A stretch of DNA of 64,000 bases from Candidatus Buchananbacteria bacterium. GTDB taxonomy: Bacteria; Patescibacteriota; Patescibacteriia; 2-01-FULL-39-33. This document shows positions 29,286 to 52,404 of this stretch, piece after piece. The first letter of the stretch is position 1; each line of letters opens with the position of its first letter. Below the pieces are notes generated by a model. It was not told the origin of the DNA. It did not search any database and saw only the letters and a list, made by a program, of their open reading frames with translations. Where the stretch lies: positions 1,988 to 65,987 of the forward strand of contig CAISTG010000036.1 in assembly GCA_903888345.1 (NCBI GenBank), read 5' to 3'. Made by a program: the position numbers and the translations under genes.

Positions 29286-29378
29286 TTAATAGTAATTTAA
29301 AATATTAAAAAAGCTCCGCGCTGGGTTTGGACCAGGGTGGAGCTTTAAAGAACGGTTTGGGTTGTTGGCGGGGCCGAG

Positions 29379-29588
29379 TTATTCGGCTGCCGGGCGGTAG
29401 ACGACAACGCGCTTTATGTACGGATTGGAGGTTTCATGGACCATGTCTGTGGTGCGGATAATCTCTTCCGCTCCCAGTCTGTTGGTGTCTTGGTCCAGAA
29501 ACTGATATACAGTTTCGATGCTTCTCTGGAAGAGTGAGACCACAAATGTTTTGACGAGTGGCGGCTGTTTCTGTGTTGTGTCTGACAT
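29379..29588 (-). CDS. Small hypothetical protein of 69 aa with a strong Shine-Dalgarno site (cassette a).
   Basis: AAAGGAG lies 8 nt upstream of the ATG. No homology recognised. Locally higher GC content. Confidence 0.5.
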   Translation of the reverse strand: MSDTTQKQPPLVKTFVVSLFQRSIETVYQFLDQDTNRLGAEEIIRTTDMVHETSNPYIKRVVVYRPAAE

Positions 29589-29637
29589 GGATCATACTCC
29601 TTTGTTGGTTGTGATGGTTTTTTGATCGATATTACGC

Positions 29638-29925
29638 TTACGATTTCTTGCCAGGAGTCAGTACCAGAATGAACCCCGGGTCTGCTCCACTGTACCAGTG
29701 GATGCGTAAAGCGAGACCTCCGTAATAGGCATCGTAGAGTTCCTGCATGTCTTCGAGTGACTCGCAGACAAACAGTCGTTCTCCCAGTCCTTGGTCGTAG
29801 CCGCAGATGACCCGATGATCTTTTGATGGTAGCGAAGGCATTTTTGTCGGCCGCCCGCTAATGTCGCAGATTCGCCTCATGTCATCGGCTCCCGCAACGT
29901 TAGTCTTTTTTCCAAGCTCGATCAT
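29638..29925 (-). CDS. Small hypothetical protein of 95 aa with a strong Shine-Dalgarno site (cassette a).
   Basis: AAAGGAG lies 9 nt upstream of the ATG. A perfect consensus promoter lies about 70 nt upstream on the minus strand. Confidence 0.55.
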   Translation of the reverse strand: MIELGKKTNVAGADDMRRICDISGRPTKMPSLPSKDHRVICGYDQGLGERLFVCESLEDMQELYDAYYGGLALRIHWYSGADPGFILVLTPGKKS

Positions 29926-29996
29926 GTTAAGGTGCTCCTTTTCGATGTTGATTTGACCACGAATCCCGTGGCGGAATTTACTAAACAGGTAATATT

Positions 29997-30029
29997 AGAT
30001 TATATTATATATACTATAATATGTCAATA
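29997..30029 (-). promoter_or_regulatory. Consensus sigma70 promoter TTGACA-N17-TATAAT on the minus strand, driving cassette a (approximate coordinates).
   Basis: Minus-strand read is ttgacatattatagtatatataatataat, located about 30 bp upstream of and divergent from the GT4 gene start. Confidence 0.5.
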
Positions 30030-30073
30030 GCAGTTATTATTAAAAATAATTATTTTTGCTAAATTTAGATAAT

Positions 30074-31249
30074 ATGAAAATTGGAATCGACGCTTCACGC
30101 GCCAACAAACCAAATAAAACAGGAACCGAGTGGTATAGCTACCATATTATTGAGGAACTTAAGAAAATCGTTAATCCTGACGATCGGGTTTTGTTGTATA
30201 CCAATTCTGTCCTAACTGGCGGGTTGGAAAATTTACCGACTAATTTTATAGAGAAGGATTTAGCGTGGCCGCCTAAGTATCTTTGGACGCAAATTAGATT
30301 GTGGTGGGAACTAATAGTTTCTCCACCTGATGTGTTATTAGTACCCGCTCATACGATTCCTTTTTTGCCGTTGCCAAAGAAAATTAAAGTTTGTGTTAAT
30401 GTTCATGATGTCGGCTTTAAGCGAAGTCCAGAATTATATAAACCGATTCAGGTTTGGTATCATGATTTGACGATGCGGCGCATTAAGCAACGGGCTGATG
30501 TGATTATTACGATTTCCGAATTTTCGAAAAAGGAAATTATTGAGTTGTATCAAGTGCCAGAAAATAAAATTAAGGTAGTCTATTTGGGATTTGATGCGGA
30601 GAAGTATCATCGCCCTAGTGTCATCCTGAATGAAGCGGAGCGCAATGAAGGATCTCAAGTATTGCCACGGGATCCTTCGCAAGCTCAGGATGACGTATTA
30701 AAAAAATACAATATTAAACAACCTTATCTATTGTATGTTGGCCGATTGGAAAAAAAGAAAAATATCGCCAACATGATTGCGGCCTTTGCTTTAGCCAAAG
30801 AAGAACAACATGATTTGCAGTTGGTTTTAGCTGGTTCTTCCGGTCATCTTTTCGATGAAATTAAAAAAATCATTACTGACAATAAATTAGAAAACGAAGT
30901 TATTATTACTGGTTATGTTGATCAGGAGGATTTGCCGCAACTTTATAGTTCAGCTGAGATATTTCTTTTTCCAACTTTATATGAAGGCTTTGGGTTGCCT
31001 ATTTTAGAGGGCATGGCTTCCGGTGTTCCGGTTATTACTTCTAATTTTGCACCACATACGGAAGTTGGCGGTGATGCGGCTTATTATGCCGATGCCTACT
31101 CGCCGGAAAGTTTAGCTGATGGTATAATTAAGATATTAACAGATGTCGAATTAAAGCAGTCTTTAATTGCCAAAGGATTGGCGCGAGTCAAAGAATTTTC
31201 TTGGCGACAGACAGCCGAGGCAATTTATAAGATTATCTCCATTATTTAG
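30074..31249 (+). CDS. Family-1 (GT4-type) glycosyltransferase.
   Basis: C-terminal EGFGLPILEGMASGVPVI motif of GT-B retaining glycosyltransferases. Length about 390 aa. Confidence 0.8.
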   Translation: MKIGIDASRANKPNKTGTEWYSYHIIEELKKIVNPDDRVLLYTNSVLTGGLENLPTNFIEKDLAWPPKYLWTQIRLWWELIVSPPDVLLVPAHTIPFLPLPKKIKVCVNVHDVGFKRSPELYKPIQVWYHDLTMRRIKQRADVIITISEFSKKEIIELYQVPENKIKVVYLGFDAEKYHRPSVILNEAERNEGSQVLPRDPSQAQDDVLKKYNIKQPYLLYVGRLEKKKNIANMIAAFALAKEEQHDLQLVLAGSSGHLFDEIKKIITDNKLENEVIITGYVDQEDLPQLYSSAEIFLFPTLYEGFGLPILEGMASGVPVITSNFAPHTEVGGDAAYYADAYSPESLADGIIKILTDVELKQSLIAKGLARVKEFSWRQTAEAIYKIISII

Positions 31250-31270
31250 TAGCACCATTTCGAGTATATT

Positions 31271-31346
31271 TTGTCATTCCGGGCTTGACCCGGAATCTCA
31301 ATTCTAGTTATCGAGGTGGAGTCCGGGTCAAGCCCGGAATGACATA
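31271..31346. repeat. Palindromic double-hairpin repeat element, copy 1.
   Basis: tgtcattccgggcttgacccgga, a spacer of about 26 nt, then tccgggtcaagcccggaatgaca. It is a perfect 23-bp inverted repeat, and each arm is itself a hairpin (attccggg / cccggaat). A near-identical copy lies at about 41955-42075. Confidence 0.65.
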
Positions 31347-31368: not shown

Positions 31369-32337
31369 ATGAAACCAATTTTATTATCTGGCATTAAGCC
31401 AACCGCTCGCGTTCATATCGGAAATTACTTTGGAGCGATGAAACGCTTTGTGGAAATGCAATCAGAGTTTCAGAATTTTAATTTCATTGCTGATTATCAC
31501 GCCCTCAATCAAATGTTGGCAACACCGCAAGAAATTAAGCAATTAACTTTGGAATTAACTGCGGCTTATTTAGCGGTCGGATTAGACCCAAAAAAAACTA
31601 TTTTATTTCGCCAATCAGATGTACCGGAAGTGACCGAGCTTAATTGGATTTTCAATTCTTTAATTACCCCATCATATCTACAAAGCGCCCATGCTTATAA
31701 AGACGCAGTCGCCAAGAAAAAAGATGTGAATATGGGATTATTCTGCTATCCGGTACTGATGGCTGCAGATATTTTAATGTATGATTCTAATGTGGTTCCA
31801 GTTGGTAAGGATCAACAGCAACACGTAGAAATCGCTTGCGACTTGGCCAAGAAGTTTAATCACGTTTATAAAAAAGAAGTGTTTAAGTTGCCGAAAGCAG
31901 TTATTTGGGAGGGCGAGAGTTTACCCGGATTTGATGGCGAAAAGATGAGCAAGAGTAAGGGCAACGTGATTGAATTATTTGAAGCCGAAGAATCGATCAA
32001 GAAAAAGGTGATGAGCATCAAGACAGATTCTAAAGGTGTGCAAGATAAGAAAGATCCGGAAGCTGATTTGATTTTTGCTTATCATAAATTATTTTCCGCT
32101 CAGATGATTGACGAGTTGAGATCTAGATATGAAAATGGCGGTATTGGTTATAAAGAGTCCAAAGATATTTTATTTGCTAATATGATGGCTTACTTAAAAC
32201 CAATGCGTGATAAATATTTCAAATTGATTAAAGATGAAAAGTATTTGAATAAGGTTTTGGCTGATGGCGGTAAGCGGGCTCGCAAAGTGGCGGAGGCTAA
32301 AATGACGGCCGTGCGTAAGGTAATTGGAGTTAGATAA
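31369..32337 (+). CDS. trpS: Tryptophan--tRNA ligase.
   Basis: HIGN (HIGH-type) motif near the N-terminus. KMSKS motif. Length 322 aa. Followed by a hairpin and T-run terminator at about 32350-32382. Confidence 0.9.
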   Translation: MKPILLSGIKPTARVHIGNYFGAMKRFVEMQSEFQNFNFIADYHALNQMLATPQEIKQLTLELTAAYLAVGLDPKKTILFRQSDVPEVTELNWIFNSLITPSYLQSAHAYKDAVAKKKDVNMGLFCYPVLMAADILMYDSNVVPVGKDQQQHVEIACDLAKKFNHVYKKEVFKLPKAVIWEGESLPGFDGEKMSKSKGNVIELFEAEESIKKKVMSIKTDSKGVQDKKDPEADLIFAYHKLFSAQMIDELRSRYENGGIGYKESKDILFANMMAYLKPMRDKYFKLIKDEKYLNKVLADGGKRARKVAEAKMTAVRKVIGVR

Positions 32338-32391
32338 ATATATTTAAATAAAAAAAGCCATTTCAATTGAAGTGGCTTTTTTATGTTTGTG

Positions 32392-32428
32392 AAAAAAAAT
32401 CATCCCGCGAGCCAGGGTGGCGCGCGGG
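32392..32428 (-). terminator. Minus-strand rho-independent terminator ending the two-gene small-membrane-protein unit (approximate coordinates).
   Basis: Hairpin cccgcg...cgcggg followed on the minus strand by a run of 8-9 T. Confidence 0.45.
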
Positions 32429-32510
32429 ACGGGAAGGAACAAATATTAAGAATTTTAAGTGACTACAGTTGGATTGAAAACAAGCTTGATCTCGGCATCA
32501 TCGAAAGCCT

Positions 32511-32783
32511 TTATAGCGGCGGCGATTTTTCTTTCCGTTCACTTTTGGGAATGCCGCGGCGTACGCACCAACACTCTGCTTCATAATGAAAACCTTTATC
32601 AATGAAGACGTGATGCACCAGGGCAAAGCTAACCGGTTCTCCGGCAAACATTTTATCCAAAACAGAAGCAATTTTAGCGCGCCTGTTTTTGTCTGCTCTA
32701 TACGCCAAGTAGGCTGAAATAATCATGACTGGCATTATGAAGGCCATAATTAGCAATGCGTTAAGGGTCCATTCAGGTAACAT
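32511..32783 (-). CDS. Small membrane protein of 90 aa (cassette b1, second gene).
   Basis: AAAGGAGAG lies 7-8 nt upstream of the internal ATG at 32783. Transmembrane helix LNALLIMAFIMPVMIISAYLAY. The longer ORF-track extension to 32867 lacks a Shine-Dalgarno site and overlaps the upstream small gene. Confidence 0.5.
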   Translation of the reverse strand: MLPEWTLNALLIMAFIMPVMIISAYLAYRADKNRRAKIASVLDKMFAGEPVSFALVHHVFIDKGFHYEAECWCVRRGIPKSERKEKSPPL

Positions 32784-32806
32784 AGAGACTCTCCTTTGTT
32801 TGTCGT

Positions 32807-32983
32807 TTAGTGTACGGGAACAGTGCTGGCCGCTGCTAGCACAATGAATGTCATCCATAGAGCCCAATATCCGAAATAGCCGATTATCACACGAACACTA
32901 ACTGGAGACTTTCCTAGTCTCCTGGCCATAAATATAAATCCGATAGAAAGGGCAATTGTCATGAGTACGAAGAACAAATACAT
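32807..32983 (-). CDS. Tiny two-transmembrane-helix protein of 58 aa (cassette b1, first gene). It falls below the ORF-track size cut-off.
   Basis: AAAGGAGAT 7 nt upstream of the ATG. Translation is MYLFFVLMTIALSIGFIFMARRLGKSPVSVRVIIGYFGYWALWMTFIVLAAASTVPVH. A TTGACT-N17/18-TAnnnT promoter lies about 40-90 nt upstream. Confidence 0.45.
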   Translation of the reverse strand: MYLFFVLMTIALSIGFIFMARRLGKSPVSVRVIIGYFGYWALWMTFIVLAAASTVPVH

Positions 32984-33082
32984 GTTGCAATCTCCTTTAT
33001 TTGTTTTCGTTAGCTTATATTATTGAGTGGTGGATTTACCAGTCAACTACTAAGAATATCATGATTATTAGTAAAAGTCAAG

Positions 33083-33130
33083 TAAATAAAAATCGTCCAG
33101 CTCCAGTTTTGGTAAACTGAGGCTGGACGG
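33083..33130 (-). terminator. Minus-strand terminator for the secreted/membrane/zinc-ribbon operon (approximate coordinates).
   Basis: Perfect 8-bp stem cgtccagc / gctggacg with a T-run on the minus strand. Confidence 0.5.
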
Positions 33131-33153
33131 GAAAGAACTGATTGCTGAGGGTG

Positions 33154-33408
33154 TCAGCTTCGTAAGTAGGCGATAAACGCGCGCCACATGATTCTGAATG
33201 GGTTGCGCTGGCGACGAGCCTCACGTGCTTTCGTCTGTGTTTCTTGGTCAGTGGCCAGTCCGCAGTTGATGCAGAACATCATGCTGGGCCAAAGTTCATT
33301 GCCGCATGCGCATTTGGGCAGTGGCACTACCTTGTTGCCGCACATTTGGCAGTATTTACCGATTATTGCCGTGTTGCGGCAGTTGGAATTTGAACAAATG
33401 CTGGGCAT
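33154..33408 (-). CDS. Double zinc-ribbon small protein of 84 aa (cassette b2, third gene).
   Basis: CSNSNC..CQMCG and CACG..CINCG (four CxxC pairs), then a basic amphipathic C-terminus. AAAGGAGA Shine-Dalgarno site 8 nt upstream. Confidence 0.6.
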   Translation of the reverse strand: MPSICSNSNCRNTAIIGKYCQMCGNKVVPLPKCACGNELWPSMMFCINCGLATDQETQTKAREARRQRNPFRIMWRAFIAYLRS

Positions 33409-33410
33409 CT

Positions 33411-33872
33411 TTATTCTCCTTTAATCGCGTTCAGCGCTTGGTTAGAACTCGGACAGGTGGGACACTTGTCTCCGGCGAGTTCAAGCGGCTGCCAACCCTT
33501 GGTCAGCAGGGTGGGAATCTTGAAGTACACCGGTTCGTTGGTTTGTTTTGTTGCTTCGGGCAACAGATTGGACCTGACCGTGGCCGTTGAGCCGTCGAAG
33601 GTGACGCTGATTTTTCCCTTGTCGGGAAACTTCAGATCTTCTTTGTTCACAAACACCTTGAAGAGGCTGCTCTGGATCTCTGGGATGGCGGTTGGTGTGG
33701 TGGCAGTGACCGGCGGGTCTACTGCCATCAGGGCATTAATCATGAAAAAGATAAAACAGACAAAAGTAGCGATTGACCAAATGATCCGTTGTGGCTGTCT
33801 GTTCTTCTCGTCAATACATAGGATTAGCCACAACAGATTGACTACGGTCAAGATGATAAAATATATATGCAT
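33411..33872 (-). CDS. Membrane-anchored hypothetical protein of 153 aa (cassette b2, second gene).
   Basis: Two N-terminal transmembrane helices. C-terminal CPTCP motif. GGAGGAGA Shine-Dalgarno site 7 nt upstream. Confidence 0.55.
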   Translation of the reverse strand: MHIYFIILTVVNLLWLILCIDEKNRQPQRIIWSIATFVCFIFFMINALMAVDPPVTATTPTAIPEIQSSLFKVFVNKEDLKFPDKGKISVTFDGSTATVRSNLLPEATKQTNEPVYFKIPTLLTKGWQPLELAGDKCPTCPSSNQALNAIKGE

Positions 33873-33905
33873 GGCGGGATCTCCTCCATCGCGTTCAGCG
33901 ATTGG

Positions 33906-34382
33906 TTAGGACTTTTTGGTCTTGCTGAAGTATGACATATTCAGCACCTTTTTGTCGGCAGTGACTAGAATGACAAAGCATTGGAAGCCGTCTTCGGTGT
34001 CGCGAGACAGGATGAAGCCGGCATCAAGTTTGCCCATGGTTCCTTTAAGCGTCCAGGTCTTGGTGTTGAGTTGTGCGCCCTCGATGTTTTGAATGGTGAC
34101 CGTGATTGTTGTTTCGTCGAGATGTGGCTCCGACAAACCCATTGATGTTTTGATACTGTTGGTGGCGTGGACAATGTCGAGTTGGCCATCACCGTCGTAG
34201 TCAAACATGTTGATGGTATTGTTGGGGACAATCTCGCAGGTGGAGCGATTGAGGCCCACGGTCTGGTGCGGGAAGATCGCCAGCGACTTTTCTTGCGTCG
34301 TTGTGCTCACTTCCTGGGCATGAGCGGCGACTGCCGTCAGCAGAATTGCGAACAGTACGACAACGAAGATAAGGTTTTTCAT
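33906..34382 (-). CDS. Secreted hypothetical protein of 158 aa with a DYDGDGQLD calcium-binding-like loop (cassette b2, first gene).
   Basis: Signal peptide MKNLIFVVVLFAILLTAVAAHA|QE. A DxDxDG loop. Shine-Dalgarno site GGAGAAAAGGA upstream. Confidence 0.6.
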   Translation of the reverse strand: MKNLIFVVVLFAILLTAVAAHAQEVSTTTQEKSLAIFPHQTVGLNRSTCEIVPNNTINMFDYDGDGQLDIVHATNSIKTSMGLSEPHLDETTITVTIQNIEGAQLNTKTWTLKGTMGKLDAGFILSRDTEDGFQCFVILVTADKKVLNMSYFSKTKKS

Positions 34383-34457
34383 GTTTCGATCCTTTTCTCC
34401 GCATAAATGCGGTAGTTGTGAAGGTCCGGTTGATAGCTAACTTTAGCCAATCAATTA

Positions 34458-34490
34458 ATAATTATAGCATACATAGCAAAATTTGTCAAG
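34458..34490 (-). promoter_or_regulatory. Consensus sigma70 promoter TTGACA-N17-TATAAT on the minus strand (copy A of the duplicated ~80-bp module), driving the b2 operon (approximate coordinates).
   Basis: Minus-strand read is ttgacaaattttgctatgtatgctataat. The surrounding ~80 bp is about 90% identical to the 35880-35960 region. Confidence 0.55.
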
Positions 34491-34705
34491 TAGTTATCAA
34501 CAGGTAAAATAAATTTTGTTTAAATTTAGATATAATAATATTAATATTTCGGCGTAATTGAAGTGATTTTCATATTTCACGATTGTACTCCTTATTGTCA
34601 TTGCGAGGGATGCGAACTCAGCCGACCACGGTAATCTCAGTTATCTTGTGACAACTAGCCGGTAAGAGCTTGTTTCGGACGTTCTGCTGAACTACCTCGT
34701 AATGA

Positions 34706-34768
34706 CGAAAATTATAAAAATTAAACAAAAAAGAAGCGCCCCGCGTAGACCGAAGTCCCGCGGGGCGA
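34706..34768 (-). terminator. Minus-strand terminator after the 34787..35083 gene (approximate coordinates).
   Basis: Perfect 9-bp GC stem cgccccgcg / cgcggggcg followed on the minus strand by a long T-rich run. Confidence 0.55.
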
Positions 34769-34786
34769 TATTTGTGCTTTGTTGTG

Positions 34787-35083
34787 TCAGCTGGCCTGCT
34801 CGTAGCGGTCCAGCGTGGCGGCAACGTCGTTTACGGATATGCAGAGTGGCACCTGACGTAGACGGCCTCGGTGCATTCCGAATAGGCCGTTGATTTGTTT
34901 CGTGAATCGTGCCAGATCGACGTTCTCATCTTCGAGGATATCCTGGAGGATGGCGAGCCAATTCACGTGGTTGTATGCCTGACCGTAGTGGCAGGACAGA
35001 CACAGCGAATCACGCGCTCCGCCCTCATTCAACCCCATTGTCTTTCTCAAAGACGTCAGAACGCGTTCTTTTAGTGTGAGCAT
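34787..35083 (-). CDS. Hypothetical protein of 98 aa (cassette c, second gene).
   Basis: GAAGGAAAGGA Shine-Dalgarno site upstream. No homology recognised. It overlaps the spurious ORF-track entries on the opposite strand. Confidence 0.5.
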   Translation of the reverse strand: MLTLKERVLTSLRKTMGLNEGGARDSLCLSCHYGQAYNHVNWLAILQDILEDENVDLARFTKQINGLFGMHRGRLRQVPLCISVNDVAATLDRYEQAS

Positions 35084-35112
35084 GATCAGTAGTCCTTTCC
35101 TTCTCTGGGAGT

Positions 35113-35742
35113 TCAGCCGGCCTTTTTGCTGGGAGTGACGATCAGGTCAAAGCGACCGTCGCCCTTCAGATATTCCTTGATGTCGCGGTCGAAGACTTGG
35201 CAGTAAGCGATGGCATCAGCCATGCGGTTGTCACGGATCAATCCGCAGATCACATCCCTGAGCGTCTTCTGTTGCTGGCGACGCTCCTGTTCCAACTCGG
35301 AGTTGGTGGCCTGTTCTTTCTGCTTCAACTTTTTGGTTGCCTGCTTCAGTTTAACCAGGCCTTTGCTGAGTTTTGCTTCCAGCTCTGCCGAGGTGACTGG
35401 CTCCAGTTCTTCGATCTGACTCTCGAAATCTCCCTGGCTGATGTCGGAGAAGAATCTGAAATCAAGCCCGGAGTAATAGTGGGGCGGCTCAACTCCCACC
35501 CAGTTTACTGGAGAGTTAATCAAACCGCTGGCAAGTAGGGCGTTAACTGATCTGGTGATTTGTTGGCGCTCTACGGTCGACAGGTCACTCGGACGCTCCC
35601 TGGTGCCGCTAATCCTGGGATTCTCGCCAAAACCGTTTTTGAATTGAACGCTGGCGACAAATCCTTTCTGATCAGCGACGATGATGACCGGGATACGGAT
35701 GCCATGGAACTCAGTTACTCGGAAAATCTCGAATTTCTTCAT
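35113..35742 (-). CDS. Hypothetical protein of 209 aa with a central coiled coil (cassette c, first gene).
   Basis: AAGGAA Shine-Dalgarno site. Charged coiled-coil segment EELEPVTSAELEAKLSKGLVKLKQATKKLKQKEQ. A consensus promoter lies about 150 nt upstream. Confidence 0.55.
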   Translation of the reverse strand: MKKFEIFRVTEFHGIRIPVIIVADQKGFVASVQFKNGFGENPRISGTRERPSDLSTVERQQITRSVNALLASGLINSPVNWVGVEPPHYYSGLDFRFFSDISQGDFESQIEELEPVTSAELEAKLSKGLVKLKQATKKLKQKEQATNSELEQERRQQQKTLRDVICGLIRDNRMADAIAYCQVFDRDIKEYLKGDGRFDLIVTPSKKAG

Positions 35743-35886
35743 GATTGAAATTCCTTTCCCACTTCGTGGGTTTTCTTGGTTGTGATTGTTTGCTTTACTA
35801 AAATTCCCTTATTTTAAGGCAATGAAATAGATAACTACTGCATCGCCCTAGAATCAGGGAACTTAGTTTGTTAAAGTTCTAATATA

Positions 35887-35919
35887 TAATTATAGCATAC
35901 ATAGTAAAATTTGTCAAGT
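35887..35919 (-). promoter_or_regulatory. Consensus sigma70 promoter TTGACA-N17-TATAAT on the minus strand (copy B of the duplicated module), driving cassette c (approximate coordinates).
   Basis: Minus-strand read is ttgacaaattttactatgtatgctataat. Confidence 0.55.
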
Positions 35920-35957
35920 AGTTATCAACAGGCTAAAATTATTTTTGTTTAAATTTA

Positions 35958-35991
35958 AATAAAAAAACCACTCAGGTTTAATGTGAGTGGC
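35958..35991 (-). terminator. Minus-strand terminator ending cassette d (approximate coordinates).
   Basis: Stem ccactca / tgagtgg, then a run of 7 T on the minus strand. Confidence 0.5.
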
Positions 35992-36014
35992 TAAATTGGT
36001 GTTCAAGATTGATT

Positions 36015-36446
36015 CTAACGCCAAGGATCAAAGTCTAAACGAATATCGCGGATTTTATTAATATTTTCCATGGTAATTATCGTGTTTTGAGCGGTTTGAT
36101 CATAAAATTCCTTGGTCAGATAGATCGTCCAGGGCCTAGGGTTGCCGGGCTTGGAGCCATCAAGGAAATTAAAGTCTGACCCCATGGCTTTGAGCATCGC
36201 GCAGACGTAATTCGGGAAAAATCCGGTTTGGAAGGTTTCTACCGTTGTTGAATCAGATATTCCCCAAATTTGGTGTCGTTCAAAGCCCTCGAAAGTCACG
36301 CTGACTGGAATAGTCAATTTTTTTGACTGATAGATTAGCCAGATTAAGGTTTTTCTAAATATTTCTGGGTACTCCGAAGTATTGGCAATCAAATATTGGA
36401 GTGCTGAGATTTGTGTATCTGTGATCACGGGAGTTGGCTTTTCCAT
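36015..36446 (-). CDS. Hypothetical protein of 143 aa, paralog of the upstream gene (cassette d).
   Basis: Shares Q(I)xAL.Y(I)..., WLI.QS..LT.PV.V and INxIR..LDFD blocks with the 36453..37001 product. Confidence 0.55.
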   Translation of the reverse strand: MEKPTPVITDTQISALQYLIANTSEYPEIFRKTLIWLIYQSKKLTIPVSVTFEGFERHQIWGISDSTTVETFQTGFFPNYVCAMLKAMGSDFNFLDGSKPGNPRPWTIYLTKEFYDQTAQNTIITMENINKIRDIRLDFDPWR

Positions 36447-36452
36447 GTGTTG

Positions 36453-37001
36453 TTACACCTTTGGTTGTTTGCGTTTCTTAACCCAAGAAACACTTTCTTT
36501 GGGTTCAGGGAGATCGTGAGAACCGCCAAAATAGCTGGCATCCGCTAACCGGATAGCATTTATTTTCTCGAGATCAAGTCTCAGGCGCGTCGCTTTATCA
36601 TCATAGAGATGGGGCGAGAGCCAGGCCGTGTAGCCGTGGAAGTTATTAAGTTCTCCCTGCTCATCGTATATTCCGCCATGAACCGAAAATCGGAAAGTCG
36701 TGCTAGCTACAGTCAGCAAGGAGTTAAGGTGGGTGGTGTTACCACCGCTGATCATGTCATGAATACTGTTAAGCAGTTGTTCGCACAACTCTATCTGGCC
36801 CTTGGGTGTGCCGGGGCAATTTTTCGGAATACTGACACAGACTGGCCGCGTTAGGTTATTCGACTGATCAATTAGCCAGAAACAAAGTCGCTTGCCGAAA
36901 TTGCTGGCATCTTTTGATCCAGCGATGTAAATTTTCAGCGCCTCAATTTGTCGGTCAGATAGGGGTCTTGATTTAGCGAGTCGGGTCGTGGATGGGGCCA
37001 T
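36453..37001 (-). CDS. Hypothetical protein of 182 aa, tandem paralog (cassette d, first gene).
   Basis: Internal ATG at 37001 has a CAGGAGAA Shine-Dalgarno site 7 nt upstream. The ORF-track start at 37076 lies inside the promoter -35 element and is unlikely. Confidence 0.55.
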   Translation of the reverse strand: MAPSTTRLAKSRPLSDRQIEALKIYIAGSKDASNFGKRLCFWLIDQSNNLTRPVCVSIPKNCPGTPKGQIELCEQLLNSIHDMISGGNTTHLNSLLTVASTTFRFSVHGGIYDEQGELNNFHGYTAWLSPHLYDDKATRLRLDLEKINAIRLADASYFGGSHDLPEPKESVSWVKKRKQPKV

Positions 37002-37045
37002 GATACGGTTCTCCTGTTGGTTGATTTTAAAGGTGCGTCGATAGG

Positions 37046-37078
37046 TGAGTCTAACATAACGAATAGGGGTTGTCAATG
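37046..37078 (-). promoter_or_regulatory. Sigma70-like promoter TTGACA-N17-TAGACT on the minus strand, driving cassette d (approximate coordinates).
   Basis: Minus-strand read is ttgacaacccctattcgttatgttagact. It overlaps the divergent holB upstream region. Confidence 0.45.
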
Positions 37079-37117
37079 GTTGCTAAGGAGGTCGGTTTTG
37101 TGTTAATATTTACTCAT

Positions 37118-38149
37118 ATGACAGGTGAAAATTGGGAGGAAAAGCATAAGTTTTTATGGGAGGTTTGCGGGCACGAAAAAATCGTTTCCTATTTAAAGTC
37201 GGCTATTGCTACAGACCGGGTTAATCATGCTTATATCTTCGCCGGTCCGAGTGGTTTAGGCAAGGCTACCGTGGCCGATCGCTTTATTAAGACTCTTTAT
37301 TGCCAAGGTCAAGGCGAGTATAAGCCCTGTGGCCAGTGTCCGGCTTGTCGCCAAGTCGAAGCGCATACGCATCCTGATGTTTATCGTGTCGGTCGGGTCA
37401 TTAATGAAAAAACCGGAAAATTTTATCGCGAAATCGTGATCGATCAAATGCGTGACCTAAAAATGAAGTTATCACAGGGCACGTTGCTCTCGTCATGGAA
37501 GATCGCGATTATTGAGGATGCTGATTATTTGAATGTTAATGCCGCCAATTCTTTGTTAAAAGTATTAGAAGAACCGACGCGTAAAACTGTCATTATTTTG
37601 TTGGTTAGTGATTTATCACAAATGCTCAAGACGATTACTTCTCGAGTTCAGGTTTTGAATTTTTTGCCAGTCAGCCACGATGAGATTAAGGATTATTTAT
37701 TGAGCCAAGAAATTAGTAATGATAAGGCGCAACGCATCGCTAATTTATCGTTAGGCAAACCGCGGCTCGCCATTAAGATGATTGAGGATAACGATTATTA
37801 TAATACGGTGACGACGGACATCAAGAGTTTTGGTGAAATTTTTGAACTTGATATGTTCTCACGCTTAAAGAAAATGGATAGCCTGCTGGACTGGGATAAG
37901 GATGAGAGTATAAATATCTCGCGTCTTAATCTACTCTTCGATCATTGGCTGATGGGTTTGCGTGATTTAATAATGCTCAGCACTAATAATTCGCGTTTAA
38001 TGGCGATTGTCGCGGGTGAGCGATCGTTAGCGGCGGGTACGGCCAACCGGTTATTGCGGGTGTATGATTTGATTTCTACAGCTCGTGGTTTATTGGACCG
38101 GAATATTAGCAGTAAAAACGTTTTAGAAAATTTAATTATAAATATATGA
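37118..38149 (+). CDS. holB: DNA polymerase III delta-prime subunit.
   Basis: HAYIFAGPSGLGKAT P-loop. Zinc module C..GQC.AC. SRVQ sensor. Start ambiguous: ATG at 37118, or GTG at 37103 which is preceded by AAGGAGG. Confidence 0.8.
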   Translation: MTGENWEEKHKFLWEVCGHEKIVSYLKSAIATDRVNHAYIFAGPSGLGKATVADRFIKTLYCQGQGEYKPCGQCPACRQVEAHTHPDVYRVGRVINEKTGKFYREIVIDQMRDLKMKLSQGTLLSSWKIAIIEDADYLNVNAANSLLKVLEEPTRKTVIILLVSDLSQMLKTITSRVQVLNFLPVSHDEIKDYLLSQEISNDKAQRIANLSLGKPRLAIKMIEDNDYYNTVTTDIKSFGEIFELDMFSRLKKMDSLLDWDKDESINISRLNLLFDHWLMGLRDLIMLSTNNSRLMAIVAGERSLAAGTANRLLRVYDLISTARGLLDRNISSKNVLENLIINI

Positions 38150-40100: not shown

Positions 40101-41258
40101 ATGTTAATTACTATTGTTTTGTTTTTACTGGTTCTCTCTTTGCTAGTTTTCGTCCATGAGCTGGGCCACTTTTTAACGGCTCGGTTTTTTGGGGTGAAGT
40201 GCGAAGAGTTTGGGATGGGAATTCCGCCACGCGGCGTCGGTTTGCAAAAGCATCAGGGCAAATGGCGGTTGATTTGGGGTAATCGCGAGAATGTTCCCGG
40301 CGAGTCGATCATTTATTCACTTAATTGGATTCCGATTGGTGGGTTTGTTAAGATTAAGGGCGAAAATGGCGAAATGGAAAATGAAACTGATAGTTTTGGT
40401 TACAAACCAGTTTGGCAGCGCAATTTGATTTTAGCAGCTGGCGTAACCATGAATGTTTTATTGACGATCGTTTTATTGATGATTGGTTTTGCAATTGGGA
40501 TGCCTAGTTCGACTTCGAATTTAGAAGGAGGCATTATTGTTTCGAAACAGCAAGTGCAGATCGCTCAAGTAATTGAGAAGTCTCCGGCTCAGGCCGCTGA
40601 TTTACGAGTTGGTGATATCGTTTTGCAGGTTGATGGCCAAGAAATTAATAATAGCGAGCAATTACGAACAATTGTAATTGCCAAAGAAAATCAAGCAGTA
40701 AATTTTGTTATTGAGCGCAGCAACGATCAAATAGAAAAAACAATTACTCCAATTAAGATAGGAGAAAATATTGGAGTTGGCGTGGCGATTGCTGATTTAG
40801 GTACCGTGCGCTATCCGATTCATTTGGCTTTGTGGCAAGCGCTTAAAGCGACTTGGGGCTGGTTTATGATGATGATCTTAGCGATTGTCGCCTTAGTTAA
40901 ACAATTGTTTGGTGGACCAGGTGTAGGCGTGGAATTCGCTGGGCCGGTTGGCATCGCCGTTCTAACGGGTCAAGCGGCTAAATTAGGCTGGGTATATTTA
41001 TTGCAGTTTGCCGCCTTGTTATCACTTAACTTGGCGATCATTAATATCTTGCCGTTTCCCGCACTTGATGGCGGTCGCATTTTATTTTTAACAATCGGCA
41101 AAGTCCGGGGCAAAATGATTAGCTCTAAGTGGGAAAATGCCTCACATAATATCGGCTTTATTCTACTAATGGTATTGATTCTCTTTATCACTTATCGTGA
41201 TTTAGTAAAATACGGCGCGAAGATTTTGTCGGTCTTAATGCGGGCCGTTGGATTATAA
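40101..41258 (+). CDS. rseP: RseP-like site-2 (M50) zinc metalloprotease with a PDZ domain.
   Basis: HELGHF HExxH motif in the first transmembrane helix. PDZ domain. LDGG motif in the C-terminal transmembrane region. Confidence 0.85.
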   Translation: MLITIVLFLLVLSLLVFVHELGHFLTARFFGVKCEEFGMGIPPRGVGLQKHQGKWRLIWGNRENVPGESIIYSLNWIPIGGFVKIKGENGEMENETDSFGYKPVWQRNLILAAGVTMNVLLTIVLLMIGFAIGMPSSTSNLEGGIIVSKQQVQIAQVIEKSPAQAADLRVGDIVLQVDGQEINNSEQLRTIVIAKENQAVNFVIERSNDQIEKTITPIKIGENIGVGVAIADLGTVRYPIHLALWQALKATWGWFMMMILAIVALVKQLFGGPGVGVEFAGPVGIAVLTGQAAKLGWVYLLQFAALLSLNLAIINILPFPALDGGRILFLTIGKVRGKMISSKWENASHNIGFILLMVLILFITYRDLVKYGAKILSVLMRAVGL

Positions 41259-41288
41259 AAAAACCTGACGAGATAACTCGGCAGGTTG
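41256..41288. terminator. Bidirectional hairpin terminator between rseP (+) and the minus-strand cassette e (approximate coordinates).
   Basis: Stem cctgacgag / ctcggcagg flanked by an A-run on one side and a T-run on the other. Confidence 0.45.
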
Positions 41289-41299
41289 AAGGATCAAAA

Positions 41300-41578
41300 T
41301 TAAGCTTTAGAGTCTGGCGTCCGTTCAAAGACGACTAGAACAGATATTGAGGCGGTGGCAGTATCGGGCAAAACAGTAGTGTCATGAATTAGCCAGCCGT
41401 TTTCTTCAGCTTCCGTATTAATATTGTCGTGAATGTTGGTTTTGGTGCCAGTAATTACTTTGGAAAAACGTAACGGAACCAGCTTATTAACCGCCGCTTT
41501 GTTACCCCCGCCCCAATTGCGGTCTCTACTATTAGTGGCAACAGGATGTTTCAACTCAATAAAAGCCGTCTCGGCCAT
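41300..41578 (-). CDS. Hypothetical protein of 92 aa (cassette e, second gene).
   Basis: AAAGGAGAT Shine-Dalgarno site 6 nt upstream of the ATG. Confidence 0.5.
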   Translation of the reverse strand: MAETAFIELKHPVATNSRDRNWGGGNKAAVNKLVPLRFSKVITGTKTNIHDNINTEAEENGWLIHDTTVLPDTATASISVLVVFERTPDSKA

Positions 41579-41602
41579 TGGTATCTCCTTTTGGTAGGGC
41601 TA

Positions 41603-41857
41603 TCAGCCGGTGGGTTCAAGAATGTTGAGAAATTTTTTCAGTTCGTTGAGAAAATCCATCCCCATTTGCCGTATGGCGGAGATAGCGATATTGGGAAACA
41701 TTTCGCGTAGCAGAGAATACATTTCTATTTCCGCTCGGTCTTCGGCATGGTACTGACGTTGCTCAGCATCAGCGGCGATAATCTTTGGTTCGAAATAATC
41801 GCAAATCCTTCTGGCAATCGCAATCTGTTCCCAGCCAATCAGTTGTCTCTCAGCCAT
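41603..41857 (-). CDS. Hypothetical protein of 84 aa (cassette e, first gene).
   Basis: AAGGAGA Shine-Dalgarno site 7 nt upstream. A putative promoter TTGACA-N17-TAAGCT lies about 60 nt upstream on the minus strand, at about 41916-41944. Confidence 0.5.
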   Translation of the reverse strand: MAERQLIGWEQIAIARRICDYFEPKIIAADAEQRQYHAEDRAEIEMYSLLREMFPNIAISAIRQMGMDFLNELKKFLNILEPTG

Positions 41858-41954
41858 GATTCGTCTCCTTGTTGGTTGTTAAAACTTAGTGTAAAGGGCT
41901 TAAACTTAATTACTTAGCTTAGCAGTAAATCAATAAAATGTCAATACGTGACAA

Positions 41955-42075
41955 GTCATTCCGCAACGCAGCAGTGTCATTCCGGACTTGATCCGGAATC
42001 TCGTTTCGACTCAATTCCTCTAGGCTCAGATTCCGGGTCAAGCCCGGAATGACAGCTGAAACGGCTGGAATGACG
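41955..42075. repeat. Palindromic double-hairpin repeat element, copy 2, with extra GTCATTCC / GGAATGAC half-sites.
   Basis: tgtcattccggacttgatccggaatc, a spacer, then gattccgggtcaagcccggaatgaca. Additional copies of gtcattccg and ggaatgacg flank the core. Confidence 0.6.
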
Positions 42076-43756: not shown

Positions 43757-43778
43757 AAAACCAGTCGAGTGACTGGTG
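43748..43778 (-). terminator. Hairpin terminator for the minus-strand 43804..44130 gene; also follows proS (approximate coordinates).
   Basis: Stem accagtc / gactggt with a run of 10 A on the + side, which is a T-run on the minus strand. Confidence 0.5.
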
Positions 43779-43803
43779 GTGATTAAGGTGCGTTAGAGTA
43801 ATT

Positions 43804-44130
43804 TTATGCTTCGTCTTCCGGTAGATAGACTTGTCCTTGCTTGCAGAGCGACTGGCCTTGAAAGATCGATTTTTCTTTGTGCCGGAAATAGCCGTCATTG
43901 CAGCCGTTTTGGGCCTTCATCATTCGGCGAAATTTCTTGCTGCGTCGGCTGCGGCTCCAAGGCTTGGTTGATTGCCCATTAAACTTGTGATTTTCGCGAA
44001 CGAGCCTGAAGCTGCCGTCTGGTTGGCTGACTTTTCGGAAGACGCGTTCACCAATAATTACAATTGGAGAGTCGCCATAACCGCGACCGGAGAGGTGGTG
44101 TAGCTTTTTCTTTGTCAACGTTTGAGGCAT
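43804..44130 (-). CDS. Basic hypothetical protein of 108 aa (cassette f).
   Basis: AAGGAGT Shine-Dalgarno site 6 nt upstream. The promoter TTGACA-N17-TAGATT on the minus strand at about 44174-44202 lies within 10 bp of the mreB start codon. Confidence 0.5.
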   Translation of the reverse strand: MPQTLTKKKLHHLSGRGYGDSPIVIIGERVFRKVSQPDGSFRLVRENHKFNGQSTKPWSRSRRSKKFRRMMKAQNGCNDGYFRHKEKSIFQGQSLCKQGQVYLPEDEA

Positions 44131-44210
44131 GCAGTACTCCTTGGTGGTTGAAACAACTAAAATTCGTTATTACAATCTAGCAGATAACTTATATATTGTC
44201 AATAGCTATT

Positions 44211-45251
44211 ATGATTTTCAAAAAATTTTTCGGTAAATTAAATAAGGGCCTGGGTATTGATTTGGGCAGTTGTAATACGCTCGTTTTTCAACGTGATCGC
44301 GGTATTGTGATTAATGAATCGTCGGTGGTGGCGATTAATAATCGTACCGATCAGATTTTGGCAATCGGTGATGAAGCGAGAAGAATGCTGGGCAAGACCC
44401 CGCCGCATATTACAGCGACGAAGCCACTTGAATTCGGAATTATTTCTGATTTTGAGGTCGCCGAAAAAATGATTAAATATTTTACTAATAAAGTTAATAC
44501 CTCTCGCTTTTCTTTTTCAGCGATGCCGCGAATTGTCGTGGGTGTGCCACTGGATGTAACGGCCGTAGAAAAAAAAGCGGTTGAAGATGTTCTCTTAGCT
44601 GCCGGTGCCAGCCAAGTGTATATGGTAGAAAATATTATGGCCACGGCAATTGGCGCACGTATTCCGATTCAGGATCCGACCGGCAATATGGTGGTTAATA
44701 TTGGTGGTGGCTTAACAGAAGTAGCGGTTATTTCCTTAGATGGTATCGTTAACTTTAAATCATCTCGCGTTGCTGGCTTGGCGATGGACCGCGATATTAT
44801 TAATTTTGCGCGTGATGAATTTAGTTTAGTCTTAGGTGAAATGGTAGCGGAAGATATCAAGAAAAAAATCGGCTCCGCAGCGATTCTTAAAGAACAATTA
44901 GAAATGCCGATGCGTGGTCGTGATATTTTATCCGGTTTACCACGAGAAGCGCGGGCCCATGATGGCCAAATTCGCGAAGCAATCTCTAAGTCAGTTTTAA
45001 AAATTCTTGATACCATTAAAGCCACTTTAGAAACGACGCCTCCAGAACTAGTCGCCGATATTTATCAAAAGGGCATATATTTAACTGGCGGATCAGCGCA
45101 GTTGAAAGAGTTGGATGTGTTAATTTCGCGTTCCATTGAGATTCCTGTTCATATTGCCGACGACCCACAGACCTGCGCAGTGCGTGGTATGGGCGTCTTG
45201 CTCGATGACGAGGCCTTATTAAAAGATATTGTTTTGCCGACTTCGCAGTAA
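44211..45251 (+). CDS. mreB: Rod-shape-determining protein MreB, paralog 2, heading a mreBCD-PBP2 operon.
   Basis: GIDLGSCNT phosphate-1 motif and actin-fold motifs. Followed by mreC, mreD and mrdA. The ORF-track start at 44196 is a TTG; the ATG is at 44211. Confidence 0.85.
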   Translation: MIFKKFFGKLNKGLGIDLGSCNTLVFQRDRGIVINESSVVAINNRTDQILAIGDEARRMLGKTPPHITATKPLEFGIISDFEVAEKMIKYFTNKVNTSRFSFSAMPRIVVGVPLDVTAVEKKAVEDVLLAAGASQVYMVENIMATAIGARIPIQDPTGNMVVNIGGGLTEVAVISLDGIVNFKSSRVAGLAMDRDIINFARDEFSLVLGEMVAEDIKKKIGSAAILKEQLEMPMRGRDILSGLPREARAHDGQIREAISKSVLKILDTIKATLETTPPELVADIYQKGIYLTGGSAQLKELDVLISRSIEIPVHIADDPQTCAVRGMGVLLDDEALLKDIVLPTSQ

Positions 45252-49584: not shown

Positions 49585-51663
<2,079 letters not shown>

Positions 51664-51912
51664 TTACTAATTACGAATTAAAAATTTAATTATTTTGCTA
51701 AATTTAAACATATTATTATAATAATATCTGTCGGTCCGCCACGGCGGATTCCGACAGTAAGTGTTTAAATTAAGACTTTTCCACAACCTAATTTTAGCAT
51801 ATTTTTGCATTTTCAACAAGCTACTTGTTGCTTGCTTTTACTTCTTAAATATCGTAAGATTTAAGTGTTTTAATCGTACATTTATTCATACCGAATAGGA
51901 GGATAATATCTT

Positions 51913-52287: not shown

Positions 52288-52404
52288 TTTTGTACCTCAA
52301 CGCTTACTTTCGAGTAAGCGTTTTTATATTTGCATTTAAAATCTGAATTTGTTATAATATATTTAAATTTAGATAGGAGGAAAGATTAAATTTAACAGAA
52401 TATT

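Follow-up and report, generated by a model that had tools for sequence, protein, structure and literature searches.

Between trpS and holB, in a 64,000-nucleotide stretch of DNA from a Candidatus Buchananbacteria bacterium (GenBank assembly GCA_903888345.1, contig CAISTG010000036.1, positions 1,988 to 65,987; hereafter the window), lies an island of four minus-strand transcription units (TU1 to TU4). Two neighbouring units, TU2 and TU3, begin with near-identical copies of one promoter module, c2 and c1, and another promoter of the same design, c3, stands between mreB and a glycosyltransferase (GT) gene. The closest named relative of the tryptophanyl-tRNA synthetase (TrpRS) is that of 'Parcubacteria group bacterium ADurb.Bin326' (86% identity), and the organism belongs to the Parcubacteria/Patescibacteria (candidate phyla radiation, CPR). 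The housekeeping genes of the window all lie on the plus strand, with a G+C content at third codon positions (GC3) of 0.30-0.45, and the cargo lies on the minus strand. From the layout, c2 would drive p209 and p98, and c1 would drive p158, p153 and p84, each operon having a structured 5' untranslated region (5'UTR), Shine-Dalgarno (SD) sites and its own terminator. Coordinates are collected in Table 1; contigs of relatives and of other samples are given by our own handles (L001 and so on).

The two copies form a direct repeat (75 nt, with a spacing of 1428 nt, in a repeat search of the window). A preliminary description of this DNA had put their identity at about 90%, and local alignment confirms it and defines the exact boundaries: 78 of the 87 columns are identical (90%), nine positions differ and there is a single 1-nt indel. 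The 22-mer TTGTCAAGTAGTTATCAACAGG and, on the -10 side of the module, the 19-mer ATAATTATAGCATACATAG are both present in just two places in the window, where 0.00 occurrences are expected (100 shuffles). When either copy is used alone as the query, nhmmer recovers the other (E = 2e-9 to 7e-9) despite heavy composition correction. Short AT-rich chance similarity, which the preliminary description had allowed for, was tested by alignment, k-mer shuffles and nhmmer and did not hold. The repeat is genuine.

Read on the minus strand, both copies are TTGACA-17-TGcTATAAT, a match at all 12 positions to the sigma-70 consensus with an extended -10 element (TG at -15/-14) in addition. The whole window contains three such 12/12 promoters (c1, c2 and c3), compared with 0.053 expected from 300 dinucleotide shuffles. 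The preliminary description had quoted a 22-mer as the full promoter; both copies are indeed perfect minus-strand promoters, but the quoted sequence covers only the -35 element and the DNA upstream of it, and TATAAT is found 17 nt further, on the low-coordinate side. Its statement that the two promoters share their context on both sides holds upstream, where identity reaches about 48 nt beyond the -35 element, but downstream the identity ends about 8 nt past the -10 element. Counted from the predicted start site, the limits are about -83, at the TTTAAATTTAAA palindrome, and about +1. Between them lie an AT-rich upstream part, the palindrome centred near -71, a TTGATAA element near -48 and then the core promoter. 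The upstream edge of c2 adjoins the T-run of the TU1 terminator. The copies agree at 16 of 17 spacer positions and throughout the 27 nt spanning the -35 element, positions that vary freely in other promoters. Identity of 90% over 87 nt, spacers included, argues for common descent of c1 and c2 and against convergence.

No terminal inverted repeats or target-site duplication were found at the ends of the module. Rfam gave no match to it at the gathering score, and elsewhere in the region only hairpin-type chance matches. The search for copies within the genome covered the 64-kb window. Exact 20- and 23-mers of the module had 0 matches in viral, genome and metagenome collections, so further copies had to be traced through synteny. 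A DnaA-box-like 9-mer, TTATCAACA, occupies about -48 to -40 in c1 and in c2 (35922-35930), and a perfect box, TTATCCACA, the same place in the copy on L072 (8996-9004). The window is not enriched in such boxes (25 versus 16.6 expected); a DnaA-box role for the module was rejected and is kept only as a lead.

The distance from the predicted start to the ATG is 73 nt behind c1 and 140 nt behind c2, with an SD sequence (GGAG/AAGGA) before the ATG. Relative to the start codon, c1 thus lies at -71 to -156 and c2 at -139 to -225, owing to the longer 5'UTR of TU2. The TU3 leader of about 73 nt is predicted to be structured (z = -3.1), and that of TU2, about 140 nt, to contain a very stable 70-nt hairpin at 35797-35867 (z = -5.3). 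Both copies would fire strongly and independently, giving two insulated mRNAs; the firing of the modules and the expression of the open reading frames (ORFs) are predictions from the DNA. A small GC hairpin directly 5' of the SD site was seen in TU3 (34395-34412), in the c3 unit (29945-29965) and in cassettes of L125, L127 and L130. Hairpins of this kind in the cassette 5'UTRs could be mRNA-stabilising or insulating elements.

The genes behind the two copies had been described as unrelated, and they are: BLASTP found no similarity between the 158- and 209-residue proteins, or between any TU2 and TU3 protein, and the DNA of the two units shows no likeness beyond the module. The cargo proteins tested against Pfam, PHROGs, PADLOC and NCBIfam matched nothing above threshold, and toxin-antitoxin, defence-system and phage readings of the cargo were set aside as unsupported by any family match above threshold. 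Among 5.8 billion proteins p209 and p182 hit only themselves, and a full HMMER search of 1.84 billion representatives with p209 again returned only itself. The island DNA had no blastn match in phage and plasmid collections. AlphaFold single-sequence models place a hydrophobic helix at residues 2-19 of p158 (...AVAAHA/QE), followed by beta strands (predicted local distance difference test score, pLDDT, 52), and one long helix at residues 118-170 of p209 (pLDDT 47); both models are too poor for fold searches. The TU2 and TU3 genes have a GC3 of 0.62-0.67, compared with 0.38-0.44 in trpS and holB on either side. Close relatives (TrpRS 81-87% identical; L071, L132, the window and the L125/L127 loci) range from 29% to 46% GC, so the GC3-rich cargo could stem from GC-richer members of the clade, not from distant donors.

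Table 1. Positions of the features discussed (window coordinates, except for the orphan promoters, which are given on their own contigs)
Feature	Position	Strand	Remarks
trpS|holB island	32383..37076	-	4.7 kb; four transcription units, TU1-TU4
trpS, left flank	31369..32337	+	followed by a bidirectional terminator at 32351-32382
holB (DNA polymerase III delta'), right flank	37118..38149	+	likely start ATG 37118, 8 nt after TAATAT box
TU1	36015..37076	-	promoter TTGACA-17-TGtTAGACT at 37076..37048, back-to-back with the holB promoter
TU1 genes	p182 36453-37001; p143 36015-36446	-	ORFans; GC3 0.47-0.50
TU1 intrinsic terminator	35961..35990	-	stem CCACTCA/TGAGTGG + T7, directly upstream of c2; read from the sequence, missed by automatic scan
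Promoter module copy 2 (c2)	35881..35967	-	palindrome TTTAAATTTAAA at 35948-35959
c2 hexamers	-35 35917..35912; -10 35894..35889	-	predicted start site ~35880-35883
p209, first gene of TU2 (behind c2)	35113..35742	-	GC3 0.65; strict ORFan, long central helix
p98, second gene of TU2	34787..35083	-	ORFan; GC3 0.65
TU2 intrinsic terminator	34725..34767	-	GC-rich stem CGCCCCGCG/CGCGGGGCG + T-run; found by automatic scan
Non-coding segment, TU2 terminator to c1	34598..34713	-	12-13-nt inverted termini CGTCATTACGAGG / CCTCGCAATGACA
Promoter module copy 1 (c1)	34453..34538	-	palindrome TCTAAATTTAAA at 34519-34530
c1 hexamers	-35 TTGACA 34489..34484; TGc 34469..34467; -10 TATAAT 34466..34461	-	
c1 TTGATAA / DnaA-box-like element	34494-34502	-	predicted start site of c1 ~34452-34456
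p158, first gene of TU3 (behind c1)	33906..34382	-	GC3 0.67; signal-peptide-like N-terminus; ORFan
p153, TU3	33411-33872	-	membrane helices; GC3 0.62
p84, TU3	33154-33408	-	zinc-ribbon-like, below Pfam cut-off; GC3 0.62
TU3 intrinsic terminator	33084..33129	-	stem CGTCCAGC/GCTGGACG + T-run; read from the sequence, missed by automatic scan
TU4	32511..33046	-	promoter TTGACT-18-TAATAT at 33046..33017
TU4 genes	p58 32807-32983; p90 32511-32783	-	GC3 host-like, 0.44-0.45
c3	29985..30080	-	palindrome TCTAAATTTAG 30059-30069; -35 30027..30022; -10 30004..29999; 12/12
c3 cargo	29305..29925	-	p95 29638-29925, p69 29379-29588; ORFans, GC3 0.56-0.59
c3 unit terminator hairpin	29305-29345		common to mreB; read from the sequence
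Orphan promoters in relatives	L006 5870-5985; L071 11015-11125; L128 2696-3070	-	

The slot between trpS and holB is filled differently in relatives. On L006, L070, L071, L072 and L124 the gap is just 200-240 nt and encodes no island protein, and four such contigs stand for three distinct sequences of the spacer. On L125, L127, L130/131, L132/133 and a JGI contig the spacer is occupied by other small genes, one or two per contig and likewise on the minus strand; their products belong to a single, rapidly evolving family of small membrane proteins (BLASTP 1e-7 to 1e-20). A profile of this family ranks p90 of TU4 first among the 976 ORF segments of the window (E = 1e-5), and by that match p90 is taken to be a shortened ortholog of the relatives' gene. 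TU4 is therefore the long-standing occupant of the slot, and TU2 and TU3, foreign in composition, arrived later; TU1 is intermediate. Within TU1, p143 and p182 are linked by a 46-nt DNA repeat (72% identical); BLASTP did not confirm that the two are paralogues. The place immediately before trpS, taken by the glycosyltransferase gene in other relatives, is occupied on L130 (842-1828) and L131 (817-1803) by a gene for a reverse transcriptase of 328 aa (Pfam RVT_1).

The preliminary description knew of two copies. The picture is wider, with the third promoter c3 in the window and related copies in relatives. c3 is only 69-70% identical to c1 and c2 and lacks the TG of the extended -10 element. 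Its palindrome is centred 36 nt upstream of the -35 element, compared with 35-36 nt in c1 and c2, and the palindrome stands at that distance at 3 of the 32 TTGACA sites of the window, exactly the three perfect promoters. The c3 unit, of about 790 nt, separates mreB from the GT gene, two genes with only 4-45 nt between them in five relatives (L006, L070, L071, L007 and L074). A profile built without c3 reaches it at E = 0.15 only, and single-sequence nhmmer misses both c3 and the L072 copy.

That copy, on a 958-kb contig of another species, lies between the GT gene and trpS, before a GC3-rich gene for 236 aa. It reads TTGATA-17-TGaTATAAT, with the palindrome as far from the -35 element as in the window copies and a spacer that starts with AAATTTTACTA, as in c2. 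Profiles that do not contain L072 recover it at E = 6e-8, 0.0012 and 0.0096. In a base-by-base count its core promoter is 89% identical to c2 of the window and 70% identical to its positional ortholog on L132; homology between L072 and L132 resumes just after the -10 element and covers the 5'UTR and the first 63 codons. This is suggestive of a promoter replacement with its breakpoint near +1, as in c1 and c2, in DNA that is short and AT-rich. The shared leader of about 100 nt (L072 9040-9150, L132 4775-4895) is about 85% identical and may be a structured RNA. The first 63 codons show 70% amino acid identity, the C-terminal parts are unrelated and the GC3 of the two genes is very different (0.65 on L072 versus 0.32 on L132), a pattern by which we read this GT|trpS-slot gene as a mosaic gene.

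Aligned on the -35 element, 15 accessory minus-strand promoters from the window and its relatives all fit TTGAC[AT]-17/18-TAnnnT, with varying spacers. TGn precedes the -10 element in 13 of the 15 and is missing from c3 and TU4. The centre of the palindrome lies 24 nt from the -35 element in a short form (L006, L071, L125) and 35-36 nt from it in a long form (c1, c2, c3, L072). The difference, about -59.5 against -71.5, is roughly one helical turn and would fit a protein site or bend on one face of the helix. The motif is over-represented in the window, with nine strand matches at six sites and 1.2 matches expected. It also occurs as TTTAAATTTAG at host genes: upstream of gyrB (51678-51708), in a stretch of about 31 nt that almost matches the upstream half of c3, and at 52362-52373, about +5 to +16, just downstream of the -10 element of the TTGCAT-17-TGtTATAAT promoter of a class II aminoacyl-tRNA synthetase gene. 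The palindrome may be the site of a host regulator or a DNA-bending site.

In some relatives the trpS|holB spacer has a minus-strand promoter and no gene behind it (L006/L070/L124, L071 and L128). These orphans are TTGACA-17-TGaTATAAT with the palindrome (12/12) in the L006 type and L071, and TTGACT-17-TGtTATAAT in L128. On L006 and L071 they face the bidirectional terminator of trpS, and the predicted product would be a hairpin RNA of 40-55 nt. The orphans reflect either recent loss of cargo or a role of the promoter itself.

Taken together, it seems probable that a portable promoter module of host type, copied by recombination apart from the genes it serves, drives moron-like ORFan cassettes. 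In this explanation c1 and c2 would be copies by descent of one strong sigma-70-type module that ends at the transcription start, the cassettes would occupy the variable trpS|holB slot alongside an older resident gene with its own promoter, and the module would have been copied independently of what it drives. The reuse of a promoter across modular cassettes, as the preliminary description proposed, is thus supported, as far as sequence comparison goes, by a discrete repeat unit, separate operons with terminators, foreign cargo and recurrence elsewhere. As to geometry, the direct repeats flank a 1.34-kb insert made up of cargo, terminator and small hairpin element. A single Campbell-type crossover between a module in the chromosome and one on incoming circular or cassette DNA could have left the order module-cargo-terminator-module, a route that we consider possible but doubtful. 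Unequal or illegitimate recombination, or duplication of a whole unit followed by replacement of its cargo, are other possible routes.

Several observations weigh against this explanation. No recombinase, target-site duplication or circular form was found. The ±10 kb collinear with annotated relatives and the ORFs scanned, which leave out most window ORFs as individual queries, contained no recombinase and only housekeeping genes (ClpB-like, GyrB, RseP, aminoacyl-tRNA synthetase and others). TU4 being an old resident, the word cassette fits TU2, TU3 and the c3 unit, and TU1 less clearly. The palindrome at the gyrB and synthetase promoters gives the module a host-derived look, so it was not necessarily brought in with cargo. 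The kinship of c3 with c1 and c2 appears architectural, common descent not being statistically secure. The cargo ORFs lack homologues, as searches with p209 and p182 showed, so their coding status rests on GC3 periodicity, SD sites and operon layout. The promoters were scored against a general sigma-70 model, assumed to be valid for CPR bacteria, and their activity was read from the letters. The TU1-c2-TU2 junction was found only in the source contig, and contigs of other samples end on both sides of c2. We did reject a stronger version, in which all cassettes are recent insertions that brought the module along, given the old resident family in the slot, the L132 ortholog with a different promoter and the palindrome at host promoters.

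A whole cassette might instead have been duplicated in tandem, its genes then diverging or being replaced until the promoters alone remained alike. The repeats are direct, in the same orientation and 1428 nt apart, and the possible duplicated pair p143/p182 in TU1 would show that local duplication happens here. This account is nevertheless unlikely: TU2 and TU3 have no cargo likeness outside the module, in protein or DNA, identity falls abruptly at about +1 and about -83 with no gradual decay, and non-coding DNA that is 90% identical beside fully diverged coding DNA is implausible unless genes were replaced, which would again mean recombination at the edge of the module. It is harder still to credit that the repeat serves for recombination or attachment, or marks one end of a small mobile element (a remnant of a miniature inverted-repeat transposable element, MITE, or of an insertion sequence, or an att-like site), with an incidental promoter match, and we think this quite improbable. 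An insert bracketed by direct repeats, a 12-nt palindrome at the distal edge of every long-form copy, small hairpin or MITE-like repeats nearby and the breaking of other samples' contigs beside the module all point that way. Yet the 12/12 match and extended -10 element are kept in diverged copies although their spacers vary, the module always faces ORFs preceded by SD sites, neither terminal inverted repeats nor target-site duplications accompany the repeat itself, the palindrome is present in ordinary host promoters too, and the recombinase scan just described was negative within the same limits.

Nor does it seem at all likely that the window contig, which comes from a metagenome-assembled genome, was joined from unrelated fragments at a short shared AT-rich sequence. 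The c2 junctions are in no other contig and other assemblies stop on either side of c2; the other samples' contigs are too short to have revealed a TU2-less allele or other c2 junctions, neither of which was found in them, and p143 is not on record. Three independent assemblies from other samples (L001, L002 and L003), however, agree at every base with the p98-c1-p158 junction, a fourth contig is on record with the gene order p209-p98-p158, the nine differences between c1 and c2 exclude a single collapsed repeat, and the trpS and holB flanks are syntenic with relatives on both sides. Least credible is that two promoters evolved independently and came to look alike through the same polymerase and regulator. 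Consensus hexamers and a phased palindrome are functional and could converge, and it is mostly in those elements that c3 and the relatives' promoters resemble c1 and c2. The matches at 16 of 17 spacer positions and across the -35 region, with an nhmmer E of about 1e-9 after composition correction, disfavour this account for c1 and c2; for the likeness of c3 to them it is possible.

The portable module that we favour has known counterparts. Putative mobile promoters (PMPs; Matus-Garcia, Nijveen and van Passel 2012, summarised in PMC3575422) are defined by an identity of 80% or more across 50 nt or longer of DNA that precedes genes which are not paralogues. More than 4000 families have been reported, mostly pairs at about 92% identity, the means of movement is given as unknown, and the survey deliberately sampled from -150 to -50 from the start codon, which mostly missed the -10 element (PMC3575422). 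Set against this sampling range, c1 fits, and c2, farther from its gene, does so only marginally. With 90% identity over 87 nt, non-paralogous downstream genes and related copies in another species, and with no match of the c1/c2 region to known RNA families or phage or plasmid collections, c1 and c2 resemble PMPs. They differ in that the unit is the whole promoter, from -83 to +1, in that what the copies would drive are ORFan cassettes inserted into a CPR genome, and in that relatives have orphan copies with no gene. To our knowledge the CPR group was absent from the 2011 genome set of the survey. The c1/c2 pair falls within the working definition of a PMP and is an instance of promoter reuse, a known phenomenon.

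The units themselves recall phage morons (Juhala/Hendrix), which have their own promoter, gene or genes and terminator, deviate in GC and lie between genes that are adjacent in relatives (PMC3594210). TU2, TU3 and the c3 unit each have a promoter and terminator, their cargo has a GC3 of 0.56-0.67 against 0.30-0.45 in the plus-strand housekeeping genes, and trpS|holB and mreB|GT are each adjacent in five relatives. Morons belong to phages and prophages, whereas these units sit in a chromosome among housekeeping genes (mreB, trpS, holB, frr, proS, gyrB), with no phage genes, PHROGs or phage-DNA matches in the context; being located outside a phage, they are moron-like but not morons. We know of no morons with a promoter module in common. 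The cassettes of integrons have no promoter of their own; each carries attC, and they rely on IntI and a shared Pc promoter. In the window, too, a fixed site collects unrelated small genes, often ORFans, in one orientation, but every unit has its own promoter and rho-independent terminator, no attC-like site follows the ORFs, and neither the collinear region nor the ORFs scanned contained an integrase or tyrosine recombinase, so the units are not integron cassettes. Small repeats that bear promoters include Correia elements, ERIC and REPIN (cited in PMC3575422). Like them, the module is short repeated intergenic DNA that gives neighbouring genes strong promoters. Such elements occur in tens to hundreds of copies, with terminal inverted repeats and duplicated target sites, whereas the module has no such inverted repeats and two to three copies in 64 kb, and so is not of the Correia or MITE type.

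The c1/c2 case reveals no new mechanism; it is a clean, well-bounded example of promoter reuse in variable intergenic slots of a chromosome from the CPR. Reusing a promoter is regarded as a quick way to activate newly acquired genes, and few cases give the exact limits of the unit, here about -83 to the start. Across related genomes the slot is seen empty, with an orphan promoter and differently filled. The case also offers a first concrete view of how CPR/Patescibacteria, with their small, highly syntenic genomes, may house and transcribe accessory genes specific to a strain: these are confined to a few intergenic slots, run against the strand of the housekeeping genes, and have near-ideal promoters before them and terminators after. 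Many of the accessory genes encode secreted or membrane proteins and could therefore bear on interaction with hosts or phages. The module is also a candidate strong, insulated promoter for synthetic biology in this uncultured group.

One could go further and see in this clade a platform dedicated to capturing and expressing foreign genes, with the promoter as its portable, recombining element and gene acquisition much as in integrons. Fixed slots (mreB|GT, GT|trpS, trpS|holB, rseP|proS) would have a resident strong promoter with a phased palindrome; foreign DNA would integrate at the module, homologously or through an unlinked recombinase acting on the palindrome; and captured DNA would at once be highly expressed and insulated by terminators, empty slots persisting as orphan promoters that fire into a terminator. 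We regard such a platform as improbable, and it is not directly supported.

The non-coding segment between the TU2 terminator and c1 is possibly a small hairpin or MITE-like element. Its overall fold is not significant (z = -1.1), and no non-coding RNA was recognised in the 190-nt segment upstream of c1 (fold z = -1.1, no Rfam family). Its termini resemble those of a small nested-hairpin repeat (TGTCATTCCGGGCTTGACCCGGAATCT ... AGTCCGGGTCAAGCCCGGAATGACA) at 31270-31346 and 41955-42074, similar in kind to repetitive extragenic palindromes (REP) or MITEs, for which Rfam gave only sub-threshold hairpin matches (WsnRNA46, miRNA precursors). GGAATGAC occurs 8 times, where 1.5 occurrences are expected.

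Two further ORFan units on the minus strand have promoters of the TTGACA-17-TGc type, with a weaker -10 element, and terminators of their own. One, p84b and p92 at 41250-41950, is flanked by rseP and a 119-aa ORF, and a comparable gene pair (104 + 96 aa) occurs at the rseP site of the JGI relative; the other, p108 at 43760-44215, is just upstream of the gene at 44196. At holB (37095-37120), GT (30050-30076) and gyrB (51645-51675) a -10-like box (TAATAT, TAAATT and TAATTA, respectively) ends 8 nt before the ATG and there is no SD site, which suggests that their mRNAs are leaderless. The inserted cassettes, unlike these three genes, have long 5'UTRs with SD sites.

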